Of a stretch of DNA of 31,632 nucleotides, positions 1 to 31,632 are shown piece by piece. The stretch's first letter is position 1. The number at the start of each line of letters is the position of its first letter. The DNA is from a virus. Taxonomy: Duplodnaviria; Caudoviricetes. The notes under the pieces were generated by a model, which made no database searches, was not told the DNA's origin, and saw nothing but the letters and a program-made list of their open reading frames with translations. Made by a program: the position numbers and the translations under genes. The stretch covers positions 1-31,632 of IMG/VR virus record IMGVR_UViG_3300030450_000412. One strand, given 5' to 3'.

Positions 1-485
1 TCTTCTTTAACTCTTAACCTTTCATCAAATCTTAAATCATTCTTTATGATACCTATAATATTAGCTCCTATTACGCTTTGTGTAGTAAATGGTTTAAATT
101 CATCATAGAACTTATAATCATCAACCAACGCTAATCCCCACACTTTAAATCCCCAACCATCACATAGATAAAATTGATTCTCTAGTATTTGATGTATTCT
201 ATCTTTACTTATAAACCTTTCTTTTTTACCATTTTCAAAAGAATGAAAACTTAGAGCATCATCATCCACCTGAATATGCCATTCATCTTCTGTATTGTTT
301 AATATCCAGTTTCTAGTTGATGTAATTCCTTTAACACTATCATCAACTCCTAAAACCTTATCATGATATTTTTTATAATCATCTACCTCAGAATTAGGAC
401 AAACTATTACTGATTCATGAAACAACTCGCTTGTAGTTACTCTACCTGCTCTACCTTTGCTTGGGATATATACTGTAAACTTCAT
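1..485 (-). CDS. TAGT/GREB1-related GT-A fold glycosyltransferase, allele A (truncated by window edge; not in ORF track)
   Basis: Hand translation: MKFTVYIPSKGRAGRVTT...GITSTRNWILN...IQVDDDAL...WG...RFDERLRVKE; ATG overlaps the ParB stop (ATGA); same motifs as 29163..29903. Confidence 0.8.
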   Translation of the reverse strand, partial: MKFTVYIPSKGRAGRVTTSELFHESVIVCPNSEVDDYKKYHDKVLGVDDSVKGITSTRNWILNNTEDEWHIQVDDDALSFHSFENGKKERFISKDRIHQILENQFYLCDGWGFKVWGLALVDDYKFYDEFKPFTTQSVIGANIIGIIKNDLRFDERLRVKE

Positions 486-2213: not shown

Positions 2214-2328
2214 AATGCTTGTTTCTAGGTGCTACTTTTTCAGGGTAATCAAATCCAAACATCATAACAAATGAATGTTTTTTTTTGGGATCATACATCT
2301 TAGCTCTACTCTTTGTTTTAATTTTCAT
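2206..2328 (-). CDS. Small hypothetical protein, 40 aa (not in ORF track; absent from right copy)
   Basis: MKIKTKSRAKMYDPKKKHSFVMMFGFDYPEKVAPRNKHYE; fills the gap and overlaps both neighbours. Confidence 0.55.
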   Translation of the reverse strand: MKIKTKSRAKMYDPKKKHSFVMMFGFDYPEKVAPRNKHYE

Positions 2329-2893
2329 TTAATTCTTTTCTTAATAATGTTCTTACTTTATCTATTGTTGTAAATAAACTATTTCTACTTATCTTAGTTT
2401 TTGCAGCAAGACTATCTAATGTATTGCCTTCATAATAATAGAGCTTAAATAATTCCCTATCATACCAATAAATGTCATCTAAGGCTTGGTCAATTTTTTC
2501 TAGCCTTGTCCATTGTTTAGCTACTTCTTCTTCTGCAATATTAGATATATGTTTATTATTAGCAATATTATGTGCCACATCATCATTACTAAAAGTTGTA
2601 CTACAATTGTAACTAGAACTGTCAATATGTGTATAATACTTTTCATACTTATAATAAAAATTACTTCTTGTACTTGTTAATGCTCTTCTTAATGCAACAG
2701 CTCCATATTTTTTAATACCCAGAATCCCATCTTTTTCCCAAATTGAAGATAATGTTGTTGGATTCATCTGCAAGAAATATAACATTAATTCTTGTACGGC
2801 TTCGTGGATTTTGTTTTCATCTGTTGTAATACCATAAGACATTTCTCTAAAAAAATCAGTAAGCTTTGATATCTCCTGATAAATCTTATTCAT
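2318..2893 (-). CDS. Phage RNA polymerase sigma factor (ECF/sigma70-like)
   Basis: Region-2-like EAVQELMLYF; region-4 HTH DRELFKLYYYEGNTLDSLAAKTKISRNSLFTTIDKVR; 191 aa. Confidence 0.8.
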   Translation of the reverse strand: MNKIYQEISKLTDFFREMSYGITTDENKIHEAVQELMLYFLQMNPTTLSSIWEKDGILGIKKYGAVALRRALTSTRSNFYYKYEKYYTHIDSSSYNCSTTFSNDDVAHNIANNKHISNIAEEEVAKQWTRLEKIDQALDDIYWYDRELFKLYYYEGNTLDSLAAKTKISRNSLFTTIDKVRTLLRKELNEN

Positions 2894-3693: not shown

Positions 3694-3970
3694 CTTGAAT
3701 AGCTCCTTTGCGCATACTGTATATTTTACCCCTTAATTCTGGATGTTCTTCCTGTAATTTTCTACGCATTCTTTCAATGGTTTTTATATTGGTTAATTTA
3801 CTGTTAGCAAATAACTGCATAAATTCATAACCACTTAGTTTATAAGGATTTATTTGTTTCTTTTTTAATTCATTATACCAATAAGTAGCTATAAGTTTTG
3901 GATCACTATCTCTTAAATGAGGTTTGTTAATTAATAGTTCTTTTACTATATCTTTTGTTTTATCTTTCAT
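3653..3970 (-). CDS. Hypothetical protein (possible DNA-binding)
   Basis: 105 aa with LRDSD..L and TIERMRRKLQE..PELRG; AACTAAAATG leader. Confidence 0.7.
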   Translation of the reverse strand: MKDKTKDIVKELLINKPHLRDSDPKLIATYWYNELKKKQINPYKLSGYEFMQLFANSKLTNIKTIERMRRKLQEEHPELRGKIYSMRKGAIQDDWKRELGYEVNK

Positions 3971-3985
3971 TTTAGTTAATTTTAG

Positions 3986-4060
3986 TTATTCTCTGATTCT
4001 TCTTATTAACCACATTACAATTGCGGTAAAAAATACCCAGCCTACGATTGATGTTTTCAT
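3986..4060 (-). CDS. Small membrane peptide, 24 aa (not in ORF track)
   Basis: MKTSIVGWVFFTAIVMWLIRRIRE; ATGA overlap with the upstream stop. Confidence 0.55.
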   Translation of the reverse strand: MKTSIVGWVFFTAIVMWLIRRIRE

Positions 4061-4275
4061 TTCATTCCCCATTTTTTCTTTTCTTCTTCTGTAAAATAAT
4101 CATTTGCTTCTAAATCATCTGCAAATTTTCTAGCTTCTTTATATAGTTTTATATTCTTTTTTTCTATATAATTTATAAATTCTTCCATCCAATAAATCTT
4201 TTCTAAATTAGATCTATTAATACTTAATGCCATTTGTAACATTCCTAATGGGGCTGTTTCTTCTTTCTGTTTCAT
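4057..4275 (-). CDS. Hypothetical protein
   Basis: 72 aa with ATGA coupling. Confidence 0.65.
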   Translation of the reverse strand: MKQKEETAPLGMLQMALSINRSNLEKIYWMEEFINYIEKKNIKLYKEARKFADDLEANDYFTEEEKKKWGMK

Positions 4276-4664
4276 TTTAATAGTTTTAAAGGTTCTTGAT
4301 AAAATAATACTTTCTTAGGGTCTTTCCCTAATGTTTTTACTTCATACCATGCGTTGTCGATTACTTTTTTGTGGGCATATACCCATTTATAAAATGTTCT
4401 AATATTTAAAAAAGGTTCATCCTTGCCAAAACGGACACCTTGATGAAAGGCATCTTGCACTTGGTTGAACGTCATATTTCCAAACCTTTTTTCATTAATT
4501 AAATCTTCTGCAAATATCTTACTAAGACTAGCCAATGTTTGAGGATCGGTGTTGTGTCCTATCTCAACAGAGGTCTTAGCTAAAAGGTCTAAAACCTTTT
4601 CTGATAGTTCTTGTAAATTTTCTTGTTTAAGTGATTTCATAATAGTTTTTTTGCTTCTTGCCAA
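4272..4664 (-). CDS. Hypothetical replication accessory protein (possible helicase loader; true start probably 4640)
   Basis: Directly downstream of the initiator; ATGA overlap at 4637-4640. Confidence 0.55.
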   Translation of the reverse strand: MARSKKTIMKSLKQENLQELSEKVLDLLAKTSVEIGHNTDPQTLASLSKIFAEDLINEKRFGNMTFNQVQDAFHQGVRFGKDEPFLNIRTFYKWVYAHKKVIDNAWYEVKTLGKDPKKVLFYQEPLKLLK

Positions 4665-6540: not shown

Positions 6541-6924
6541 TTATTTTCGTTTAAATTCTTCTGATTCATCTTCACCAAACACTCCAAGCTCATAAAAACC
6601 TGTTAATTTGAGTACCGCCCTGCTCATAGCCCTCTTTTCTGCCATTTCAACAACATACCAGGAATTGGTTGTTCCGCTTTTAAAATCACCTTTAAGTGCA
6701 GAACCATACGTTTGTATGGATGTTTTACCTTTTGTAGCGTATGCTTTAATTACACAAAAATCTTTCTCGCATTTCTCTATGTAGTAATCTAATTTTATTT
6801 GTTCAATAGCAGCAATTTTTTCTACGCCACTTCTAGTGATGATCAAATAGTGTTGATGTTTAAATATATCTTCTTTTTCTAATCCATAGTGAAGATATTT
6901 TTCCTTAATTTTTTCTGTTTTCAT
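6541..6924 (-). CDS. Probable single-strand annealing recombinase (Rad52/Sak-like)
   Basis: MAEKRAMSRAVLKLTG helix, acidic C-terminus, proximity to SSB. Confidence 0.5.
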   Translation of the reverse strand: MKTEKIKEKYLHYGLEKEDIFKHQHYLIITRSGVEKIAAIEQIKLDYYIEKCEKDFCVIKAYATKGKTSIQTYGSALKGDFKSGTTNSWYVVEMAEKRAMSRAVLKLTGFYELGVFGEDESEEFKRK

Positions 6925-6950
6925 TTGTTTCGTTTTAGTTATTAGTTGGT

Positions 6951-6979
6951 CAAAAGTATAAAAATTTATTTACTTTCAA
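6951..6979 (-). promoter_or_regulatory. Host sigma70 promoter TTG-N18-TACTTTTG
   Basis: Bacteroidota consensus TTG-N17-21-TAnnTTTG upstream of the 6924 gene. Confidence 0.65.
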
Positions 6980-7452: not shown

Positions 7453-7683
7453 TTAGTAGTTTAAGTTAATGTGTAACAAAATTGATCCAACAAATAAAGC
7501 TACCAATCCAATACAAAGAAGTGAAAACCTTATATTATCCATAAATTTATCATCATCCTGTATAATATAATCATCAGATGTGTTAATGTATTCCCCTCTA
7601 CTGTTTTTAACATAGAAGAAATTAGCAGCTTCTTTTGGGTTTAGGTTAAAGCTATGACCTGTTTTTTTGTTTGTGATTTTCAT
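7453..7683 (-). CDS. Hypothetical early protein with C-terminal TM helix
   Basis: FSLLCIGLVALFVGSILLHI; AACTAAAATG leader. Confidence 0.65.
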   Translation of the reverse strand: MKITNKKTGHSFNLNPKEAANFFYVKNSRGEYINTSDDYIIQDDDKFMDNIRFSLLCIGLVALFVGSILLHINLNY

Positions 7684-7700
7684 TTTAGTTTTTTTTATAA

Positions 7701-7874
7701 TTAATAATTAGTGTTAGTTATAATATGAATAGTTTTATTTGTTTTCATATTAATAAAGTGTAAATAACAAGTATCTTCACACACAAAAACCTCAATATCA
7801 TCATTAGATTTCTTTTCAGTTTTATAATAATACTCGTTTAAAAATTTTGAATCTTTGTTTTTAGTAATTTTCAT
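7701..7874 (-). CDS. Small early protein, 57 aa (not in ORF track)
   Basis: MKITKNKDSKFLNEYYYKTEKKSNDDIEVFVCEDTCYLHFINMKTNKTIHIITNTNY; GCTAAAATG leader. Confidence 0.6.
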   Translation of the reverse strand: MKITKNKDSKFLNEYYYKTEKKSNDDIEVFVCEDTCYLHFINMKTNKTIHIITNTNY

Positions 7875-7884
7875 TTTAGCTTTT

Positions 7885-8094
7885 TTAGTTAATAATGTTT
7901 TTCTCTCTTATTTCAAAACAATCTTCTTTTCCATTCAGACTTATACCTAATGATTGTCCTATTCCTGATATAAAATAAACAATTTCTCCGTTTATTTCTT
8001 CAATATATTTTATTGTATTAGTTTTAGTTTTTTCTTGACCAAAAATTTTTGTCTTAAAAGTAACTGATTGACCGATATTAAATTTGTTTTTCAT
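7885..8094 (-). CDS. First early gene, hypothetical (start reassigned to MKNKFNIGQSV)
   Basis: The track start at 8154 lies inside the promoter; the ATG at 8094 has the shared AACTAAAATG leader. Confidence 0.65.
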   Translation of the reverse strand: MKNKFNIGQSVTFKTKIFGQEKTKTNTIKYIEEINGEIVYFISGIGQSLGISLNGKEDCFEIREKNIIN

Positions 8095-8121
8095 TTTAGT
8101 TTTTTTATAATTAATATGGTA

Positions 8122-8129
8122 CAAAGATA
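8122..8129 (-). promoter_or_regulatory. Host sigma70 -7 element (TATCTTTG), main early promoter
   Basis: TAnnTTTG at the head of the early gene array. Confidence 0.7.
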
Positions 8130-14167: not shown

Positions 14168-14171
14168 ATAT

Positions 14172-14200
14172 TATATAATAGAAAAACCCTGTTTTTATTT
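14172..14200 (-). promoter_or_regulatory. Putative phage late promoter
   Basis: AAATAA-N12-TCTATTATATA, 4 nt before the ATG. Confidence 0.75.
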
Positions 14201-14205
14201 GCTTA

Positions 14206-14917: not shown

Positions 14918-15832
14918 TTATGATTGTCTAACAATATCAGCTCCAACTCCTGTTTGAACACCTGCTGAATATCTTGCAACAACTCTCATGTTGTCACTGC
15001 CGTCAAGGTTAGCCATGTCTAACATAGATATTCTAGTAGCGTCACTTAAAAGGTCAGTTCCAAAGAACATGTTTGACTTTTCTGCTGCAACTAGCTGGTT
15101 GTCTGCCATGCCTGGACAAACGGCAATTTTGTAGCCTTCAAATACAGGCTCATAATCTCCGTTCATGTTGTAAGCGTTTACATATCCTAAAGTCGATACT
15201 GCTGAAATGTAGAATGCGTAAGTTTTAGGATTCATGTAAATATGTAAATCCTCTTTTCTTAATATTGGAGAAACATTAGCAGCCATGTCAGCCGTTAAAG
15301 TTTGTAAGTTAGCAATAATGTTTGCTGCCGTGTAAGCGCCTGAAGCTGATGACTGAATTACAGTTGCATCAACACCTGGTAATAAGTACCCTGTTGCAGC
15401 TCCTAAGAATCCCTTGAATTTACCTGCTACTGCTGTACCTTCCCAAATGCTTTCTTCAGTACCATTAGCAATAATCTCACCTAAGTAAGAAATTACATAA
15501 TCCTCAAAAGATGCTGGAGGTGGAGCGCCTGCTCCTGCTCTCATTTGAAGGGCTTCCCAAGAATCAAGAAGGGTACTCTTACATAAATCAATATTTATTT
15601 GTAGGTTCTTAGGTTCTAAAACTTTTTCTGTCAGGGCAAGAGTTCCTGCATCATTAAAGTCACACGTAGCGTCAGCAATCATGCCTGATCCCGCCATACG
15701 TTGGATGTTACTCTTGTACTTAATGTTTTCGATCATTGTTAAATAGTCCAATGATTTAGCTTCTTTTAGGGCTGCCGCAATATAAAATCCCGCCGCCTTC
15801 CCCGCAAAGTTGCTCGTTGTAGTAAATGCCAT
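14918..15832 (-). CDS. Major capsid protein
   Basis: 304 aa after the scaffold gene; IENIKYK, LTEKVLEP, IWEG and FFGTDLLSD pattern. Confidence 0.85.
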   Translation of the reverse strand: MAFTTTSNFAGKAAGFYIAAALKEAKSLDYLTMIENIKYKSNIQRMAGSGMIADATCDFNDAGTLALTEKVLEPKNLQINIDLCKSTLLDSWEALQMRAGAGAPPPASFEDYVISYLGEIIANGTEESIWEGTAVAGKFKGFLGAATGYLLPGVDATVIQSSASGAYTAANIIANLQTLTADMAANVSPILRKEDLHIYMNPKTYAFYISAVSTLGYVNAYNMNGDYEPVFEGYKIAVCPGMADNQLVAAEKSNMFFGTDLLSDATRISMLDMANLDGSDNMRVVARYSAGVQTGVGADIVRQS

Positions 15833-16582: not shown

Positions 16583-16594
16583 AGGTTCTTTTTT

Positions 16595-16623
16595 AATATA
16601 ATAGAATAGTTATTTATTTATTT
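16595..16623 (-). promoter_or_regulatory. Putative phage late promoter
   Basis: AAATAA-N12-TCTATTATATT, 12 nt before the scaffold ATG. Confidence 0.7.
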
Positions 16624-16628
16624 GATTT

Positions 16629-18143: not shown

Positions 18144-18145
18144 AT

Positions 18146-18174
18146 TATATAATAGATTAAATTAATATTTATTT
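18146..18174 (-). promoter_or_regulatory. Putative phage late promoter
   Basis: AAATAA-N12-TCTATTATATA, 2 nt before the ATG. Confidence 0.75.
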
Positions 18175-18179
18175 GATTT

Positions 18180-19736
18180 TTAAATTGTAGCTCTTCTTCT
18201 AATTGCTGCTAGTTTATCTTGATTATTTGTTATATCATCAGAAACAACGTATGCTTGAACAGGTTCAGGAGCTTGACCCCCTGCTAGTTCAAACGTTCCA
18301 CCCATCATTTGTGGTGCTGGAGTTTGAGATGCTCCTGCTGATGGTACTGATCCACCACCTCCACCCCCTTCACCAGGAATTTCAGTATCCATTATTTTCT
18401 GAACATTAGCTAAACCTGTGGCTATAATTGCTGCCACTTCTACCATAGCCCAAGGATTTCCTGCCACATTTGCTAGTGCCTTATTAGCTGCTGCATAAGT
18501 ATCCATAATAGCTTGTGCTATTGCTAATGCTTTATTTTCTCCTGCTAACTGTTGTAATGCTCCAGCTAAATTAGAATAAGCACCTAATTGCTGTTCAACT
18601 CCTGTTGCCACAACTGCTGCTTTTTGTTGTTCAAATTGTTTAGTTATAGCTGTTGTATCCATTCCCGATTTTCTAGCCATATCTAACTTTAATTTATACG
18701 AGGCTTCTAATTCTTCTAACTCCCTTTCAATACCTGATAATCCTTCAGCTCTTAATTCGTTTTGTGTTTCTAATAGTTCTTTTTCTAAAGCTACTTGATT
18801 TGTTTTTTGTTCTGATAGTTGACCTGTTATTGTTTCTTCTAGCTCTAATTGAGCCACTTTAGTTTCTTGCAGTGCTATCCAATTTTCATCAGATTGGTTG
18901 ATATTATATTGCTTTTGTGCAGCTTCCTCCATAATATTTAACTGCGCCCTTTGTAGTGCTTGTTGCTCTGCTAATACTTTATCTAAATCTTTGTTAGCTT
19001 GTATTCTTTCTGCAAAAGTTTTAGTTTCATCATCTCTCACTTGTCTGAGAACTTCAGCTTCTTGTAATTTAATTGCATTAAGTTTAGCAAATTCTACTGC
19101 TGCCTTATCTGCCGCTTTACCTGATTCTGTTACTGCTTTAGCATTGTTGTATGTTTCTTTAGTATAATTTACAACTTTTTTAGTTATTTTTTCAATTGAT
19201 TTATCTGTTCCTGTTAAAACATCATAAAATTCCACTTGTGCCTTTGCTGCCGTTTTGGCGGCTTTTGTGAATTCACCTTCAAATAAATAATTAACTGCTT
19301 CACCAAGATAACCCATAACTTCAAGCATCTGATTAAATCTATCTATAATACCATTTTTTATAGATTGACCCAAATCTGCTATTTTTTGCTGCGGGTCTTC
19401 AAACAACTCTTTAAACCACCCTACTATATCTCCAGCAGTATCACTTATAACATTAAATAAATCATTAAACACAATATCTAATGCGGTCATAGCTGTATTA
19501 AAAGCATCTATAACTTTTTGATTTTTTGAAAATACTTCAAATAACTTGGCTATCAGTGCCACAACCAATCCAATACCAGCACTCTTTAATGCAGTACCCA
19601 TTCCTTTAATTGTAGAACCTAGCGTTTTAAATCCTTGTCCAGCTTGATCCGTTGCCTTATCTAAACTTTTTACATCTTTAGTAACGCTTTTTATATTTGT
19701 TTTTACTTCTGCTTCTAGTATTGTTTTATCTGCCAT
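18180..19736 (-). CDS. Tape measure protein
   Basis: Ala/Gln-rich helical protein; ALKSAGIGLVVALI and KALAIAQAIMDTYAAANKAL segments. Confidence 0.8.
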   Translation of the reverse strand: MADKTILEAEVKTNIKSVTKDVKSLDKATDQAGQGFKTLGSTIKGMGTALKSAGIGLVVALIAKLFEVFSKNQKVIDAFNTAMTALDIVFNDLFNVISDTAGDIVGWFKELFEDPQQKIADLGQSIKNGIIDRFNQMLEVMGYLGEAVNYLFEGEFTKAAKTAAKAQVEFYDVLTGTDKSIEKITKKVVNYTKETYNNAKAVTESGKAADKAAVEFAKLNAIKLQEAEVLRQVRDDETKTFAERIQANKDLDKVLAEQQALQRAQLNIMEEAAQKQYNINQSDENWIALQETKVAQLELEETITGQLSEQKTNQVALEKELLETQNELRAEGLSGIERELEELEASYKLKLDMARKSGMDTTAITKQFEQQKAAVVATGVEQQLGAYSNLAGALQQLAGENKALAIAQAIMDTYAAANKALANVAGNPWAMVEVAAIIATGLANVQKIMDTEIPGEGGGGGGSVPSAGASQTPAPQMMGGTFELAGGQAPEPVQAYVVSDDITNNQDKLAAIRRRATI

Positions 19737-26645: not shown

Positions 26646-26891
26646 GTTTTACTTTATTTTGTGTACTTAAATCCGTTTCATAACTTAACCACGTTAAACA
26701 TTCTAGTAGGTTAAGGTTTGTTATTCTTTCTAAGTTTACTATTTCACCTTTTGTTAATCTATACATCACTCCGAACCATCCCCACTTTTCTGCAAAAGAT
26801 TCGGAGGCAATTCCATCTCCATCTCCTTCATTCGTTCCATTAAAAATAATGGCAAAATCTCTAGCAATTCTTTCCCTAAAGCAAAAAAAAA
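26629..26891 (-). CDS. Frameshifted (-1) C-terminal part of tail assembly chaperone (gpGT-like)
   Basis: T9 run at 26883-26891 followed by an 84-codon open -1 frame: CFRERIARDF...FAEKWGWFGVMYRLT...CLTWLSYETD. Confidence 0.7.
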
Positions 26892-27407
26892 CCGCAAGGC
26901 TCCTTGCACTTGCTCTGCTTTCATCTTCTTCATTTCTTCCGCCCTTATACTTATATTACCATCATAAGCTTCAATGGTATAAATATTGTTCTTCTTTTCT
27001 ACAATGGGTCTATACAATACCGCCATCAATTCAGCCATGTTCTTATCAACTCCATTCTTAATGAACGTTTCTATGTCTGCATATTCACCAAGAGTAATTG
27101 AATCTAAATCAGGATGAAATCCATACTCTTTTCCATCCACTTCAATTATCTTTCTCAAAGAACTTTCTGCTCCCTTTTGCGCATCACTTATTCTTTCTAA
27201 TATAATTGCAATATCTTTTATTTCCAGCTTTTTGATCAGCTTTCTCGGAATTGTAGATAGTGCTTTTATAGTTTCTAGCGCTTCTTTTGTCTTTATTTCT
27301 TTTTGGAATCCAATTAGTTTAGCCCAAGTTTCTAGAGTAACATCTGACCAACTGCTAATTAATTTAAATTCCTTTACTTCACCATCCTGCTTAATTTTTA
27401 CTTTCAT
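26766..27407 (-). CDS. Tail assembly chaperone (gpG-like)
   Basis: SWSDVTLE, YGFHPDLDSITLGEYADIE and MAVLYRP motifs; slippery FFF. Confidence 0.7.
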   Translation of the reverse strand: MKVKIKQDGEVKEFKLISSWSDVTLETWAKLIGFQKEIKTKEALETIKALSTIPRKLIKKLEIKDIAIILERISDAQKGAESSLRKIIEVDGKEYGFHPDLDSITLGEYADIETFIKNGVDKNMAELMAVLYRPIVEKKNNIYTIEAYDGNISIRAEEMKKMKAEQVQGALRFFFALGKELLEILPLFLMERMKEMEMELPPNLLQKSGDGSE

Positions 27408-27411
27408 ATAT

Positions 27412-27440
27412 TATATAATAGAAAAAGTTGTTATTTAGTT
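27412..27440 (-). promoter_or_regulatory. Putative phage late promoter for the tail operon
   Basis: AACTAA-N12-TCTATTATATA (one mismatch), 4 nt before the ATG. Confidence 0.7.
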
Positions 27441-27457
27441 TAAAATTTTTATATTTG
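27428..27457 (+). promoter_or_regulatory. Host sigma70 promoter TTG-N19-TATATTTG on the plus strand
   Basis: Exact Flavobacterium-type consensus and spacing. Confidence 0.65.
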
Positions 27458-27460
27458 CCG

Positions 27461-27520
27461 CGGTTTGTTTCATTTTAGTTATAAAAAGGGGGGTTAGTCA
27501 ATTTGGCTGCCCTCTTTTTT
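27461..27520 (+). ncRNA. Candidate antisense small RNA targeting early-gene start regions
   Basis: Promoter, ~22-nt unstructured seed, G:U-rich hairpin and U6 tail; seed complementary to early leaders. Confidence 0.55.
27483..27520 (+). terminator. Intrinsic terminator favouring the plus strand
   Basis: GGGGGGTTAGTCA-att-TGGCTGCCCTCT-TTTTT; several G:U pairs become A:C mismatches on the minus strand. Confidence 0.65.
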
Positions 27521-28829
27521 ATTGCACAAAATACTTTCCAAAATTACTATCCACTTCATAAAACATTCTCATAGCTAAAGCATCTGAATAATCAGGTGAT
27601 CTACCTAATATAGCTTTTACTGTATCTTTTGGAATGACCTGTAATTTATTATCTTTATCAGCATCTTTAGTTCTAACTTGTTCGCATTCTTCTATTATTT
27701 GTTGTTTAACATTAACATCTGAGCAGCTTATTCCTATTTGACCCTTATTAATTAGATCAGCTAACTTATAATAGCATTGTGTTTTTAAGTTTTGATAGTT
27801 CTCATTCTTCAAAGGCCTTGCATTGTTTACAAACCCCTTGCACCTTAAATAATCTTTAACACCACCACCCACTCCATCTTCATCAACTATTATATTTCTT
27901 AAATTAACTTGGTTCTCTTGTTGTAGCTTCTTTACTTCATCCACAACATCATTTACAGCCGATTTAAGCAACGTTCTTATATGTCTAAGGTGTAACCCCT
28001 GCCAAAGCATTATAACTGTCTTATCACTACCAAAACGAGCCACATCACATGTTATATACTTTTCACCATCTACACCTTGCTGGTTGAACAAACTTATAAT
28101 TGAGTTATAATCTATTAAGCTATCATCTGTTGCATCATATTCCCAATTACCATATAATAATCTTTGTTTGCTCAGTTCATCTAATTCAAATAGCTGTTTC
28201 TCATAATGCTTAGATATATAAGTATTATCACCCACTAAACTTTGTATAAACTTTCTATAAGGTTTTATTGAATTATCTTTTGCTGGTCTGTAATATTCTG
28301 TGTACACCCAATTCTTTGCTGGGTTGCAAGTCATTAGCATTTTAGGAATTAATCCATTTTCATCTAGCTTGTATCTTAATCTTGAAGCAACTACGTTCTT
28401 TGCTTTTTCTGTTATTTGATTTGCTTCATCAATAAAAGCTGATGTAATCTCTAACGAACCTAAGCTATCAAAGTTTCTATCTGATGGATATAAAAACAAA
28501 TCTTTTAGTATTATCTCTGATCCATTGTAAAAGGTTATCACATTACTTGATCCGTTAAAAGTGTAATGCTCTATTGCTTTTAGTTTCCAAGCTGTACAAA
28601 CCTCAAAGAAAGTGTTTAGTGTTGTTTTCTTTAATGCATCCAATTTAGACCTCCCCATTAAATATCTAGTCTTAGGATACTGAGTAGCCATTAGTATTAA
28701 GTAGCTTACACCCACCCAAGACTTACCACCACCTGCTGCTCCTCCAAATAATACTTCTTTTGTTTTGTTATCAAACAAATATCTTAAACACTCTTTTTGT
28801 GTTTTAGTAAATTCAGGATTAATCTCCAA
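27519..28829 (-). CDS. terL: Terminase large subunit
   Basis: Walker A GGAAGGGKS, Walker B AFIDEA, TCNP; nuclease CDVARFGSD, DEDGVG and SPDYSDA. Confidence 0.96.
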   Translation of the reverse strand: MEINPEFTKTQKECLRYLFDNKTKEVLFGGAAGGGKSWVGVSYLILMATQYPKTRYLMGRSKLDALKKTTLNTFFEVCTAWKLKAIEHYTFNGSSNVITFYNGSEIILKDLFLYPSDRNFDSLGSLEITSAFIDEANQITEKAKNVVASRLRYKLDENGLIPKMLMTCNPAKNWVYTEYYRPAKDNSIKPYRKFIQSLVGDNTYISKHYEKQLFELDELSKQRLLYGNWEYDATDDSLIDYNSIISLFNQQGVDGEKYITCDVARFGSDKTVIMLWQGLHLRHIRTLLKSAVNDVVDEVKKLQQENQVNLRNIIVDEDGVGGGVKDYLRCKGFVNNARPLKNENYQNLKTQCYYKLADLINKGQIGISCSDVNVKQQIIEECEQVRTKDADKDNKLQVIPKDTVKAILGRSPDYSDALAMRMFYEVDSNFGKYFVQ

Positions 28830-29903: not shown

Positions 29904-30507
29904 TACGCATTGTTTTTATTGCACTAATCCCATCTAAAACCCTACCTACACCTGTACGAAAATGCTTACCTGCTTGATTTCTTGCAACAACCTTTTCCAA
30001 CTTAAACAGACTGTTTGCATATATCCAATCAATATCCTTTGTAAATTTTAATATAATATAATTACACTCTGAATCAATCTCATTTGCAAAAGGGTTCTCA
30101 CTTTCTGAATTTTCAGGATTTTTTATTTCTTCTATATCATCTTCAGTTAACCACACATCCAATCCCCACTCATTAAGCTTTTTACTATCCCATTCGTTTG
30201 CTAACATATCCCATTCCCAATCACCAAAACCTACATTATCTTTTACTACAAACTCCTGCTTCTGTTCTTCTGATAATCCTGTTGCAACATCTATCCATAC
30301 TTCTGTTAAACCAGCTTCTTTACTTGCTCTTAATCTCATGTTACCCCCAAGTACCATCATATTTTCATCAACAACTATTGGTCTTAACTCTAACATCTCA
30401 GGAAAATCTTTAATTGATTGAACTAATTTTTTAAACTTATCGTTCTTGATAACTCTTGGATTATTAGGATTCCCTTTTATTTTGCTTATGCTTACTTGTT
30501 CTTTCAT
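29893..30507 (-). CDS. parB: ParB/Srx-like N-terminal domain protein, allele B
   Basis: First ~115 aa nearly identical to 482..1075; C-terminus diverged. Confidence 0.9.
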   Translation of the reverse strand: MKEQVSISKIKGNPNNPRVIKNDKFKKLVQSIKDFPEMLELRPIVVDENMMVLGGNMRLRASKEAGLTEVWIDVATGLSEEQKQEFVVKDNVGFGDWEWDMLANEWDSKKLNEWGLDVWLTEDDIEEIKNPENSESENPFANEIDSECNYIILKFTKDIDWIYANSLFKLEKVVARNQAGKHFRTGVGRVLDGISAIKTMRNES

Positions 30508-30509
30508 AA

Positions 30510-30538
30510 TATATAATAGAAATTTTTGTTATTTATTT
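30510..30538 (-). promoter_or_regulatory. Putative phage late promoter
   Basis: AAATAA-N12-TCTATTATATA, 2 nt before the ATG. Confidence 0.75.
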
Positions 30539-30794
30539 AAAAGTCTTCATTTATACCTCTCTCACCAATTAATTTTTCTCTTGCACTATCCCACAAATAA
30601 TCACCTCTTTTCTTTTTGCTTAAAGAAGGTTCTGTTCTCTTTATAGTTGGCATTCCTTCTTCAGGTTCGCTTTCCATAAACTTTCCACATGGACATTCTG
30701 ATCCTTTAGTAACCCAAGCACCATCACGAAAAACAATCACTTGCTTATGTATTTCCTTTTGGTGTTCCCCACATTTACATTTATATAATGCCAT
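30537..30794 (-). CDS. Hypothetical Zn-ribbon-like protein
   Basis: Homolog of 1105..1362. Confidence 0.75.
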   Translation of the reverse strand: MALYKCKCGEHQKEIHKQVIVFRDGAWVTKGSECPCGKFMESEPEEGMPTIKRTEPSLSKKKRGDYLWDSAREKLIGERGINEDF

Positions 30795-31054
30795 TATAAT
30801 CCTGTTCTATCTAAACCCCCTGTTTTTATATCACTATCTTTAAAAATACGATCCAGCTCAAAGTGTAAATGGTTTATTGCTTTGCGTATATCTTGCTCAA
30901 TTGGGTTGCCTTCTTTTTTACCCGCCCTTAGTAAATAAGTAATGGCTGTGCCTAAATTATAATTATCACCTTGAAAATCTTCAACAACTTTTCTTGCTTC
31001 TATTTTATGCTTTTTACCTATGTAATAATGTGGTATTTCTTCCTTTTTTTTCAT
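30794..31054 (-). CDS. DUF3310 family protein
   Basis: PHYY...YNLGTAITYLLRAGKK...DIRKAINHL. Confidence 0.75.
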   Translation of the reverse strand: MKKKEEIPHYYIGKKHKIEARKVVEDFQGDNYNLGTAITYLLRAGKKEGNPIEQDIRKAINHLHFELDRIFKDSDIKTGGLDRTGL

Positions 31055-31452
31055 TGTGTATATTTTTTATATAATTTTTTTATTCCATCAAAACATGCTG
31101 ATAGGCATGAGCCACAATTTGTTCTTGGGCTGTAATTAGTCATAAATATCGTATTATATGTTTCAATCATTCGTTTTTTTGCTGCTTGGTTTTTAGCTTT
31201 ACCTGTTTTTAAATCTTTCCACATATCTAATATTTCATCTATTATCTCTTGTGGTAAATCATCAGGTGTTTCTATCTTAGTTGTTTTCTGCCACTTCCTT
31301 TGACTGCATTCCATTGGGGCGAGCCTGGCTTTGATTTTCATGAAACAACCACAGTCCTTACATGTTCCTGTTGGCTTAAAATAATAAACACATTCCCTGC
31401 ATATAGATATTCTATCTTCATACACATCATTTGGAACAAAAAATTTATTCAT
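31051..31452 (-). CDS. Cys-rich metal-binding protein
   Basis: Homolog of 1812..2213. Confidence 0.75.
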   Translation of the reverse strand: MNKFFVPNDVYEDRISICRECVYYFKPTGTCKDCGCFMKIKARLAPMECSQRKWQKTTKIETPDDLPQEIIDEILDMWKDLKTGKAKNQAAKKRMIETYNTIFMTNYSPRTNCGSCLSACFDGIKKLYKKYTQ

Positions 31453-31632
31453 TTAATTCTTTTTTTAATATTTCCCTAACCTTATCTATTGTGGTGAATA
31501 AACTGTTTCGGCTAATCTTTGTTTTTGCAGCAAGACTATCTAATGTGTTCCCCTCATAATAATACAACTTAAATAACTCCCTATCGTACCAATGAATATC
31601 ATCTAACACTTTATCTATTTCCTCTAGCTTTG
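31445..31632 (-). CDS. Sigma factor C-terminus (partial; not in ORF track)
   Basis: Hand translation KLEEIDKVLDDIHWYDRELFKLYYYEGNTLDSLAAKTKISRNSLFTTIDKVREILKKELNE*. Confidence 0.85.
   Translation of the reverse strand, partial: KLEEIDKVLDDIHWYDRELFKLYYYEGNTLDSLAAKTKISRNSLFTTIDKVREILKKELNE

Follow-up and report, generated by a model that had tools for sequence, protein, structure and literature searches.

A family-wide candidate small RNA behind terL with a seed that co-varies with early gene start regions in uncultured marine phages

The gap behind terL and its genomic surroundings

The window analysed here is the entire virus record IMGVR_UViG_3300030450_000412, a stretch of 31,632 nt with a GC content of about 31%. 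All of its annotated genes lie on the minus strand. The early run extends from 8094 to about 2318 and holds small genes as well as genes for SSB, a replication initiator, NinG and an ECF-sigma-like protein. Packaging genes are present besides the early run, and the late run begins at 27407. The gene for the terminase large subunit, terL, was located at 27519–28829 on the minus strand (PHROG 2, E 2e-32). The ECF-sigma-like gene, which lies towards the end of the early genes (2318–2893, minus strand), matched phrog_36 and, at an E of 4.7e-7 that is below the cut-off, TIGR02937. A faint Pfam match of the 26766–27407 protein (E 0.033) was far under the cut-off and was treated as noise.

Related genomes are labelled G and related loci L, each with a number; genome size among the relatives is about 27–32 kb. 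Positions 732–2508 and 30164–31632 of the window carry the same gene run and are 83–92% identical. The contig is possibly chimeric because its two ends are such diverged copies; it exceeds one genome length and probably joins two close genotypes. In an independent contig (G001), the seed described below and the leader at 6924 are identical to those of the window.

Nonlabens phage P12024 was the sole named relative found, with 27% identity to the protein of 14918–15832, and this phage has no gap behind terL. From the promoter motifs and this distant match, we infer that the hosts are marine Flavobacteria. Host assignment through matches to species genomes was rejected, as these matches were phage-sized contigs in unrelated bins. 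The phage-sized contigs of the family that were binned into unrelated bacterial or archaeal assemblies (L250, L543–L547) are probably contamination. An integrated copy was not found among the species genomes, where all 5 matches were phage-sized contigs of 14–36 kb. The original prediction spoke of a phage with no recognisable repressor, and this held in 50 genomes: neither an integrase (PF00589, 0/50) nor an HTH_3 (cI-type) repressor over the cut-off (PF01381, 0/50) was detected in a scan for these two Pfam families.

The gap that separates terL from the first late gene holds a candidate RNA unit in antisense orientation, on the plus strand. A host-type Bacteroidota sigma-A promoter is predicted at 27428–27457 on the plus strand and consists of TTG (27428–27430), 19 nt and the -7 box TATATTTG (27450–27457). 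It is followed on the same strand by a predicted 5' single-stranded, U-rich seed (27462–27482), which is unpaired in the fold and pairs with early start regions, and by a hairpin with a U6 tail (27483–27520). The latter is a predicted intrinsic terminator, and its end overlaps the terL stop on the other strand. The original prediction had described this unit as complete, with a seed at 27461–27482 and the U6 running to 27520, and each of these elements was confirmed. The fold of 27461–27520 reached -18.2 kcal/mol on the plus strand (z -3.7) and -7.3 kcal/mol on the minus strand (z -1.8), as expected of the plus-strand-specific hairpin that had been proposed, and the first 22 nt from the 5' end were unpaired in the plus-strand fold. 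According to PMC9723704, the Flavobacterium -7 box sits at -12 to -5, and therefore the RNA is predicted to start at 27462 and to be about 59 nt long; the length of about 60 nt given earlier stands, while the start moves from 27461. The seed of the window contains no plus-strand ATG. The cassette occupies the intergenic gap only, and the matched start regions are distant. Rfam gave no match at the gathering score in the window, and 20 loci searched at E under 1 gave 4 weak, unrelated matches.

A late-type promoter motif (AAAnnnAA, 8–13 nt, TCTATTATA) lies at 27408–27445 on the minus strand, where it would serve the 26766–27407 gene. The motif precedes this gene in 26 of 27 genomes, stands also before three other late gene groups and a ParB-like gene, and is almost absent elsewhere. 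On the minus strand of the window, the shared late-promoter-like motif was seen near an ATG at 27408–27445, 30508–30545, 1076–1110, 18144–18180, 16583–16625 and 14168–14205. It is a candidate target of the ECF-sigma-like product of 2318–2893, which likely activates the late promoters. The -33 TTG of the cassette falls within the opposite-strand late promoter of the 27407 gene. The sRNA promoter and the late-type promoter overlap divergently, and therefore the two may occlude each other.

Presence and conservation of the cassette among relatives

Searching by protein through the neighbouring 213-aa protein yielded 110 related loci. The family is very large, uncultured and marine, with an estimated 5000 or so sequence stretches. 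The whole cassette (box, U-rich seed, hairpin and U-run) was present in 56 of the 110 loci and wholly absent from 52, and the remaining 2 held another insert. Presence was all-or-none between conserved neighbours, and in most cassette-less loci the stop codon of terL abuts the late promoter. The architecture of promoter, seed and hairpin was thus conserved in relatives, as the original prediction requires. The early shut-off that had been proposed is unlikely to be obligatory, because so many loci lack the cassette. The strict -7 box TAnnTTTG was found in 41 of 51 distinct cassettes, and a TTG at a spacer of 17–22 in only 33 of the 51. This corrects the original prediction with regard to the TTG, which is the element lying in the opposite late promoter.

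The cassette strand had the stabler fold in 47 of 49 distinct cassettes, with 143 G:U pairs on this strand versus 15 on the other. Seeds and stems were highly diverse among cassettes. Alignment-based covariation was uninformative, with only 4 consensus pairs and stems that vary in length and register; one alignment row with wrong coordinates was left out. An opposite-strand minigene (MKQTAANIKILN) had been named as an alternative that would undo the RNA reading. It failed in the relatives: peptide, frame, length and ATG were not conserved, and the start was missing in about one third of the cassettes. At the level of sequence, the unit has the features of a trans-encoded base-pairing sRNA, namely a putative promoter and terminator of its own, a seed and no conserved peptide.

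On a quick tree, presence of the cassette was clustered yet scattered, with 17 changes, a count that includes L312 and L323 mislabelled as absent; at least 4 of the changes are forced by strong branches. One sequencing run contained, as contigs, joints of relatives that skip the cassette. In L328, the terL slot (194–427, minus strand) is taken up by a 77-aa gene together with its host-type promoter, A-rich leader and terminator, all in antisense to the late genes; this content is a predicted protein moron replacing the RNA. The stretch from terL to the late promoter measures about 425 nt in L258; the insert there has a host-type promoter, gave no match in Rfam and is perhaps a longer non-coding RNA. 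L304 and G051 carry a second short element, about 45 nt long, behind the first terminator, between cassette and terL. The long-stem cassettes of G004, G005, G010, G018 and G030, and of G011, G012, G025, G028, G033, G034, G043 and G052, share the loop words TTGTCGT or AACGTG. No evident phage target was found for these words, which may act as another seed or be recognised by a protein.

Predicted pairing of the seed with early start regions

All six early matches of the original prediction were recovered at their positions. Two of them fall in regions with promoters of their own, here called T1 and T2. T1 (8075–8129, minus strand) comprises the main early promoter (-7 box 8129–8122) and the leader of the first early gene (ATG 8094), with a seed match at 8089–8101. 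T2 (6905–6958, minus strand) comprises the second early promoter (-7 box 6958–6951) and the leader of a 127-aa gene; the seed covers 19 of its roughly 22 leader bases, and the match at 6924–6942 amounts to 18/19 with one A.C mismatch. T2 was the best binder among the 55 starts of the window (-17.1 kcal/mol). The four other matches, all on the minus strand, are extra targets of this lineage: the starts of a 76-aa gene (7678–7690; 13 nt, -14.3 kcal/mol), a 57-aa gene (7869–7879; 11 nt, -13.0 kcal/mol), a 105-aa gene with two tandem sites (3965–3989; 14 + 11 nt, -15.4 kcal/mol) and a 72-aa gene (4268–4279; 12 nt, -12.8 kcal/mol). The family of the 76-aa gene usually forms the first early gene, and its ortholog group shows an own-genome pairing advantage; for the ortholog group of the 105-aa gene, the family-wide own advantage reached p 0.06 only.

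The product of the T2 gene (6541–6924, minus strand) had no Pfam, PHROG or NCBIfam match. In Foldseek, its model (pLDDT 83) showed weak similarity to 80a Sak, RAD52, Red-beta and dsRBDs (E 1e-3 to 1e-2), and Atlas leads were below 0.9. As judged from the model, the protein is likely a single-strand annealing protein of the Sak/Rad52 type, with a tentative family assignment.

The 8 best-binding of the 55 start regions were all early, whereas 18 of the 55 are early. The mean of the best five was -15.2 versus -10.4 ± 1.0 for shuffles of the seed, and 0 of 300 shuffles reached the observed pairing, which upholds the claim of a seed aimed at early starts beyond chance. The CTAAAATG core occurs at 4 early starts of the window and at no other start, and two further occurrences fall inside late coding sequence. 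The absence of the core from late starts was thus correct, but not every match carries it, since that at 4268–4279 is without it. At early starts the core was counted 4 times in the window, 3 times in its twin and 0–2 times in 25 other genomes. A multi-gene tag as a rule of the family was rejected, the long exact seed matches being peculiar to the window and its twin. The family-wide targets are two start regions, T1 and T2, and the tag on 4–6 early genes is specific to the lineage of the window.

Because such long exact matches were special to the window, pairing energy was tested instead, with each seed set against its own genome and against those of others. The seeds of 24 near-complete genomes favoured the early starts of the genome from which they came (z -0.72 and p 3.5e-4 for the best three), and no own advantage was seen at own late and packaging-region starts. 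Early genes accounted for 50 of 72 top pairings versus 324 of 1130 genes. When 33 ortholog groups were screened without bias, two reached the permutation floor (p 2e-4), that of the usual first early gene and that of the 6924 gene, and one late group was also own-favoured (p 0.008). T1 was then taken to be the leader downstream of the main early promoter, irrespective of the gene it belongs to, and T2 to be the start of the 6924 family; with these definitions, made after seeing the data of the 24 genomes, and with identical seeds dropped, z was -1.1 and p 2e-5 (n=27 and 23).

The held-out set consisted of 34 new cassette genomes, for which the target rules were fixed beforehand; T1 was callable in 26 and T2 in 21 of them. 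With repeated seeds dropped, own pairing was -11.5 versus -7.6 kcal/mol with others for T1 (n=21, p 2e-5) and -11.9 versus -9.2 kcal/mol for T2 (n=16, p 2e-5). After removal of seeds already seen, p was 2e-5 and 8e-5 (n=17 and 12), respectively. One seed-target pair, in held-out genome G112, was exact over 16 bases. The check for co-variation of seed and early leaders that had been suggested for relatives was therefore positive and was replicated in held-out genomes.

When kin were ranked by their early genes, own pairing was better than that with the nearest three in 25 of 27 (T1) and 21 of 23 (T2) cases. Against the single nearest genome by cassette-flanking genes, the advantage was weak (18/27, p 0.02; 14/23, p 0.056). 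The AT-rich genome, with its low GC content, and the loss of significance under strong thinning would agree with a chance likeness of AT-rich sequence inflated by genome relatedness: p was about 0.02 with 8 and 7 lineages, and 4 lineages were not significant (p 0.22 and 0.12). However, the median p was still 0.004 and 0.002 with 15 and 14 lineages, and the shuffles and the held-out replication speak against chance, as do 21 composition-like control pseudo-seeds antisense to other own starts, which gave z between -0.50 and +0.46 and p under 0.02 in 2 of 42 tests. Chance is largely refuted, and we regard it as extremely improbable.

Duplexes touched the region from -12 to +6 in 44/44 (T1) and 32/35 (T2) cases. 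A typical own duplex was modest, at about -11 to -12 kcal/mol. In the 11 genomes whose T2 gene possesses a promoter-like element of its own, T2 pairing was somewhat stronger than in the 24 others (p 0.049). In counts that are not free of relatedness, AACTAA was present in the T2 leader in 13/20 genomes with the complement in the seed, 8/23 without it and 0/19 cassette-less genomes, and in the T1 leader in 18/26 with the seed complement versus 6/26 without. Own ranks were poor in G037 (rank 25 of 27), G030 (rank 22 of 27) and G074 (rank 20 of 21), and some seeds suit the leader of another genome better than their own. By eye, the seed of G033/G034 matches the first leader of G025/G043 over about 18 nt, and that of G030 matches the leader of G031/G059 over about 14 nt, in both cases longer than the own match. 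Such cross-genome matches could reflect recombination or targeting of kin. The mean pairing of foreign seeds was no weaker at the leaders of genomes that lack the cassette (p 0.31 and 0.54), and therefore escape from competitors finds no support. In G014, G015, G044, G071, G095, G097 and G146, the ATG of the first early gene lies 4 nt past the -7 box; these seven genomes are predicted to have a leaderless first early message.

If the RNA paired chiefly with host mRNAs, and its likeness to phage leaders were a by-product of the adaptation of both to the start-region preferences of one host, this would account for a U-rich seed suited to the generic A-rich starts of Bacteroidota. It would also suit the several seeds that lack a long exact match within the genome carrying them, and the loop words without a phage target. 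The own advantage is limited to two early positions, however, and it persists against the closest kin. Late starts, which use the same ribosomes, were avoided: own pairing there was worse than foreign pairing (z +0.66, against -0.37 to +0.35 in 13 shuffles). We therefore hold the host-mRNA explanation to be improbable. The avoidance of late starts suggests that late messages and the RNA are present together.

Seen from the coding strand, the seed is a direct repeat of the leader, the duplexes are about 94% Watson-Crick with no excess of G:U wobble over background and no signal in wobble asymmetry, and about two thirds of the seeds contain an ATG. The resemblance might accordingly be one of DNA or coding strand, with the copy of the early leader serving as an operator, as a decoy for a RegA-like protein, as a repeat for recombination or as the beginning of the minigene. 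This would not explain why there is a promoter box in antisense and a terminator specific to one strand, and it sits poorly with the lack of conservation in the minigene. Furthermore, the T1 and T2 of one genome were not alike (n=42, p 0.10), contrary to a shared operator or repeat, and therefore the seed appears to meet each of them separately. We give this reading very little credence.

The promoter itself could be what counts, with host RNA polymerase occluding the late promoter until the phage sigma appears, the terminator only shielding terL and the seed being a passive spacer. The divergent overlap favours this, as the distance from the -7 box to the late-promoter element was 9–12 or 22–23 nt in 50 of 51 distinct cassettes. 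A passive spacer, however, would not track leaders at the far end of a recombining genome, in which similarity of the flanking genes and of the early genes was only loosely related (rho 0.21). As the main explanation, occlusion is very unlikely; it may be a second effect of the cassette.

Proposed mode of action and comparison with known systems

We regard the cassette as a real, family-wide candidate sRNA with a replicated co-variation of seed and target. It probably encodes an antisense RNA of about 59 nt, made from a host sigma-A promoter, whose seed occludes the starts of the first early gene and the Sak-like gene and blocks their translation. The promoter of the RNA and the early promoters share one host type; the RNA would therefore be transcribed from phage entry onward, and as a stable RNA it would build up over the infection. 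The unpaired seed would then pair over the A-rich leader and AUG of T1 and T2 and occlude initiation. Initiation in Bacteroidota relies on upstream adenines. Since Shine-Dalgarno sites are lacking in these bacteria (PMC9723704) and the adenines are used in their place, an RNA lying over leader and AUG would be expected to block initiation. Polarity on the downstream replication and sigma genes through the first cistrons is possible. The most likely use would be a delayed lytic brake, in which the first early messages escape and later ones are damped, including the messages of a later-arriving identical or related phage. In the lineage of the window, the tag would have spread to four more early starts.

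The patchy presence and the fast divergence of seeds and leaders appear to fit an accessory role (self or kin exclusion) as well as a timer. An RNA-only immunity code, in which seed-leader pairs diversify like lambdoid immunity types and a resident silences the early genes of identical or related phages that arrive later, or keeps itself in a carrier state, is conceivable but somewhat doubtful. If it were true, competition between co-infecting relatives would have left its record in the gain and loss of cassettes and in altered seeds. The cassette bears on the little-understood ways in which phages that appear virulent and have no repressor lower their early genes or exclude competitors. Dozens of natural seed-leader pairs form a ready-made compensatory-mutation series, and therefore RNA control of starts free of Shine-Dalgarno sites is directly testable in Flavobacterium reporters. 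The cassette would also offer a compact, programmable repressor scaffold for Bacteroidota.

The c4 RNA represses by base pairing at several sites, with a specificity that differs between P1 and P7. It is named as an antisense repressor controlling Ant in P1/P7 in PMC8201110. Like c4, the cassette RNA would be a short phage RNA that targets its own early message by pairing at more than one site. However, c4 sits in the immI operon beside its targets and within a temperate protein-repressor circuit, whereas the cassette RNA is a separate unit behind terL that is remote from its targets, and no integrase or HTH_3 repressor was found in its family. The cassette had no match to the Rfam C4 model (P1/P7 c4, P4 CI), and it is not encoded in the leader of a controlled operon in a temperate circuit, as is typical of the C4 type. 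The P4 CI RNA exerts RNA-only control of an early operon through leader pairing; it is processed from the leader that it controls and causes termination. The cassette would share the RNA-only early control but, unlike CI, has its own predicted promoter and terminator and would pair over start codons.

According to PMC12197685, sar (P22) blocks translation initiation, sar, OOP and aQ (lambda) are antisense to one nearby gene, and 24B_1 (Phi24B) is Hfq-processed with a single proposed antirepressor target. The cassette RNA would resemble these as a phage sRNA that damps phage genes, and all of those, as described there, belong to temperate circuits. STnc6030 of prophage BTP1 is a cis-antisense RNA of about 786 nt against late genes in the lysogen, and it excludes the same phage, not a relative (PMC7067206). 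On that description, the cassette is likewise an accessory RNA locus antisense to late genes; unlike STnc6030, its RNA of about 60 nt would aim in trans at early starts. The long perfect overlap with the target transcript that marks cis-antisense RNAs (sar, OOP, STnc6030) was not seen for the cassette.

The literature searched, mostly open-access, did not describe such an RNA, and the consulted sections of the review PMC12197685 contained no comparable case. Six seed words had no match in the searched portion of the PMC10690425 supplements, the remainder of which may list them. Like a moron, the cassette is either complete or missing altogether at a site flanked by conserved neighbours, and it is scattered on the tree. 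Among the trans-encoded sRNAs of Bacteroidota is GibS; another is Rfp18 of the host-encoded kind. The latter is treated in PMC9723704, and the predicted cassette RNA shares with both a sigma-A promoter of its own, an exposed seed, an intrinsic terminator and several targets. Rfp18 and GibS, however, are host-encoded and have conserved seeds, whereas the cassette is phage-encoded and its seed diverges in step with its self targets. Our verdict is that the cassette represents a putative new form of phage trans-acting antisense control.
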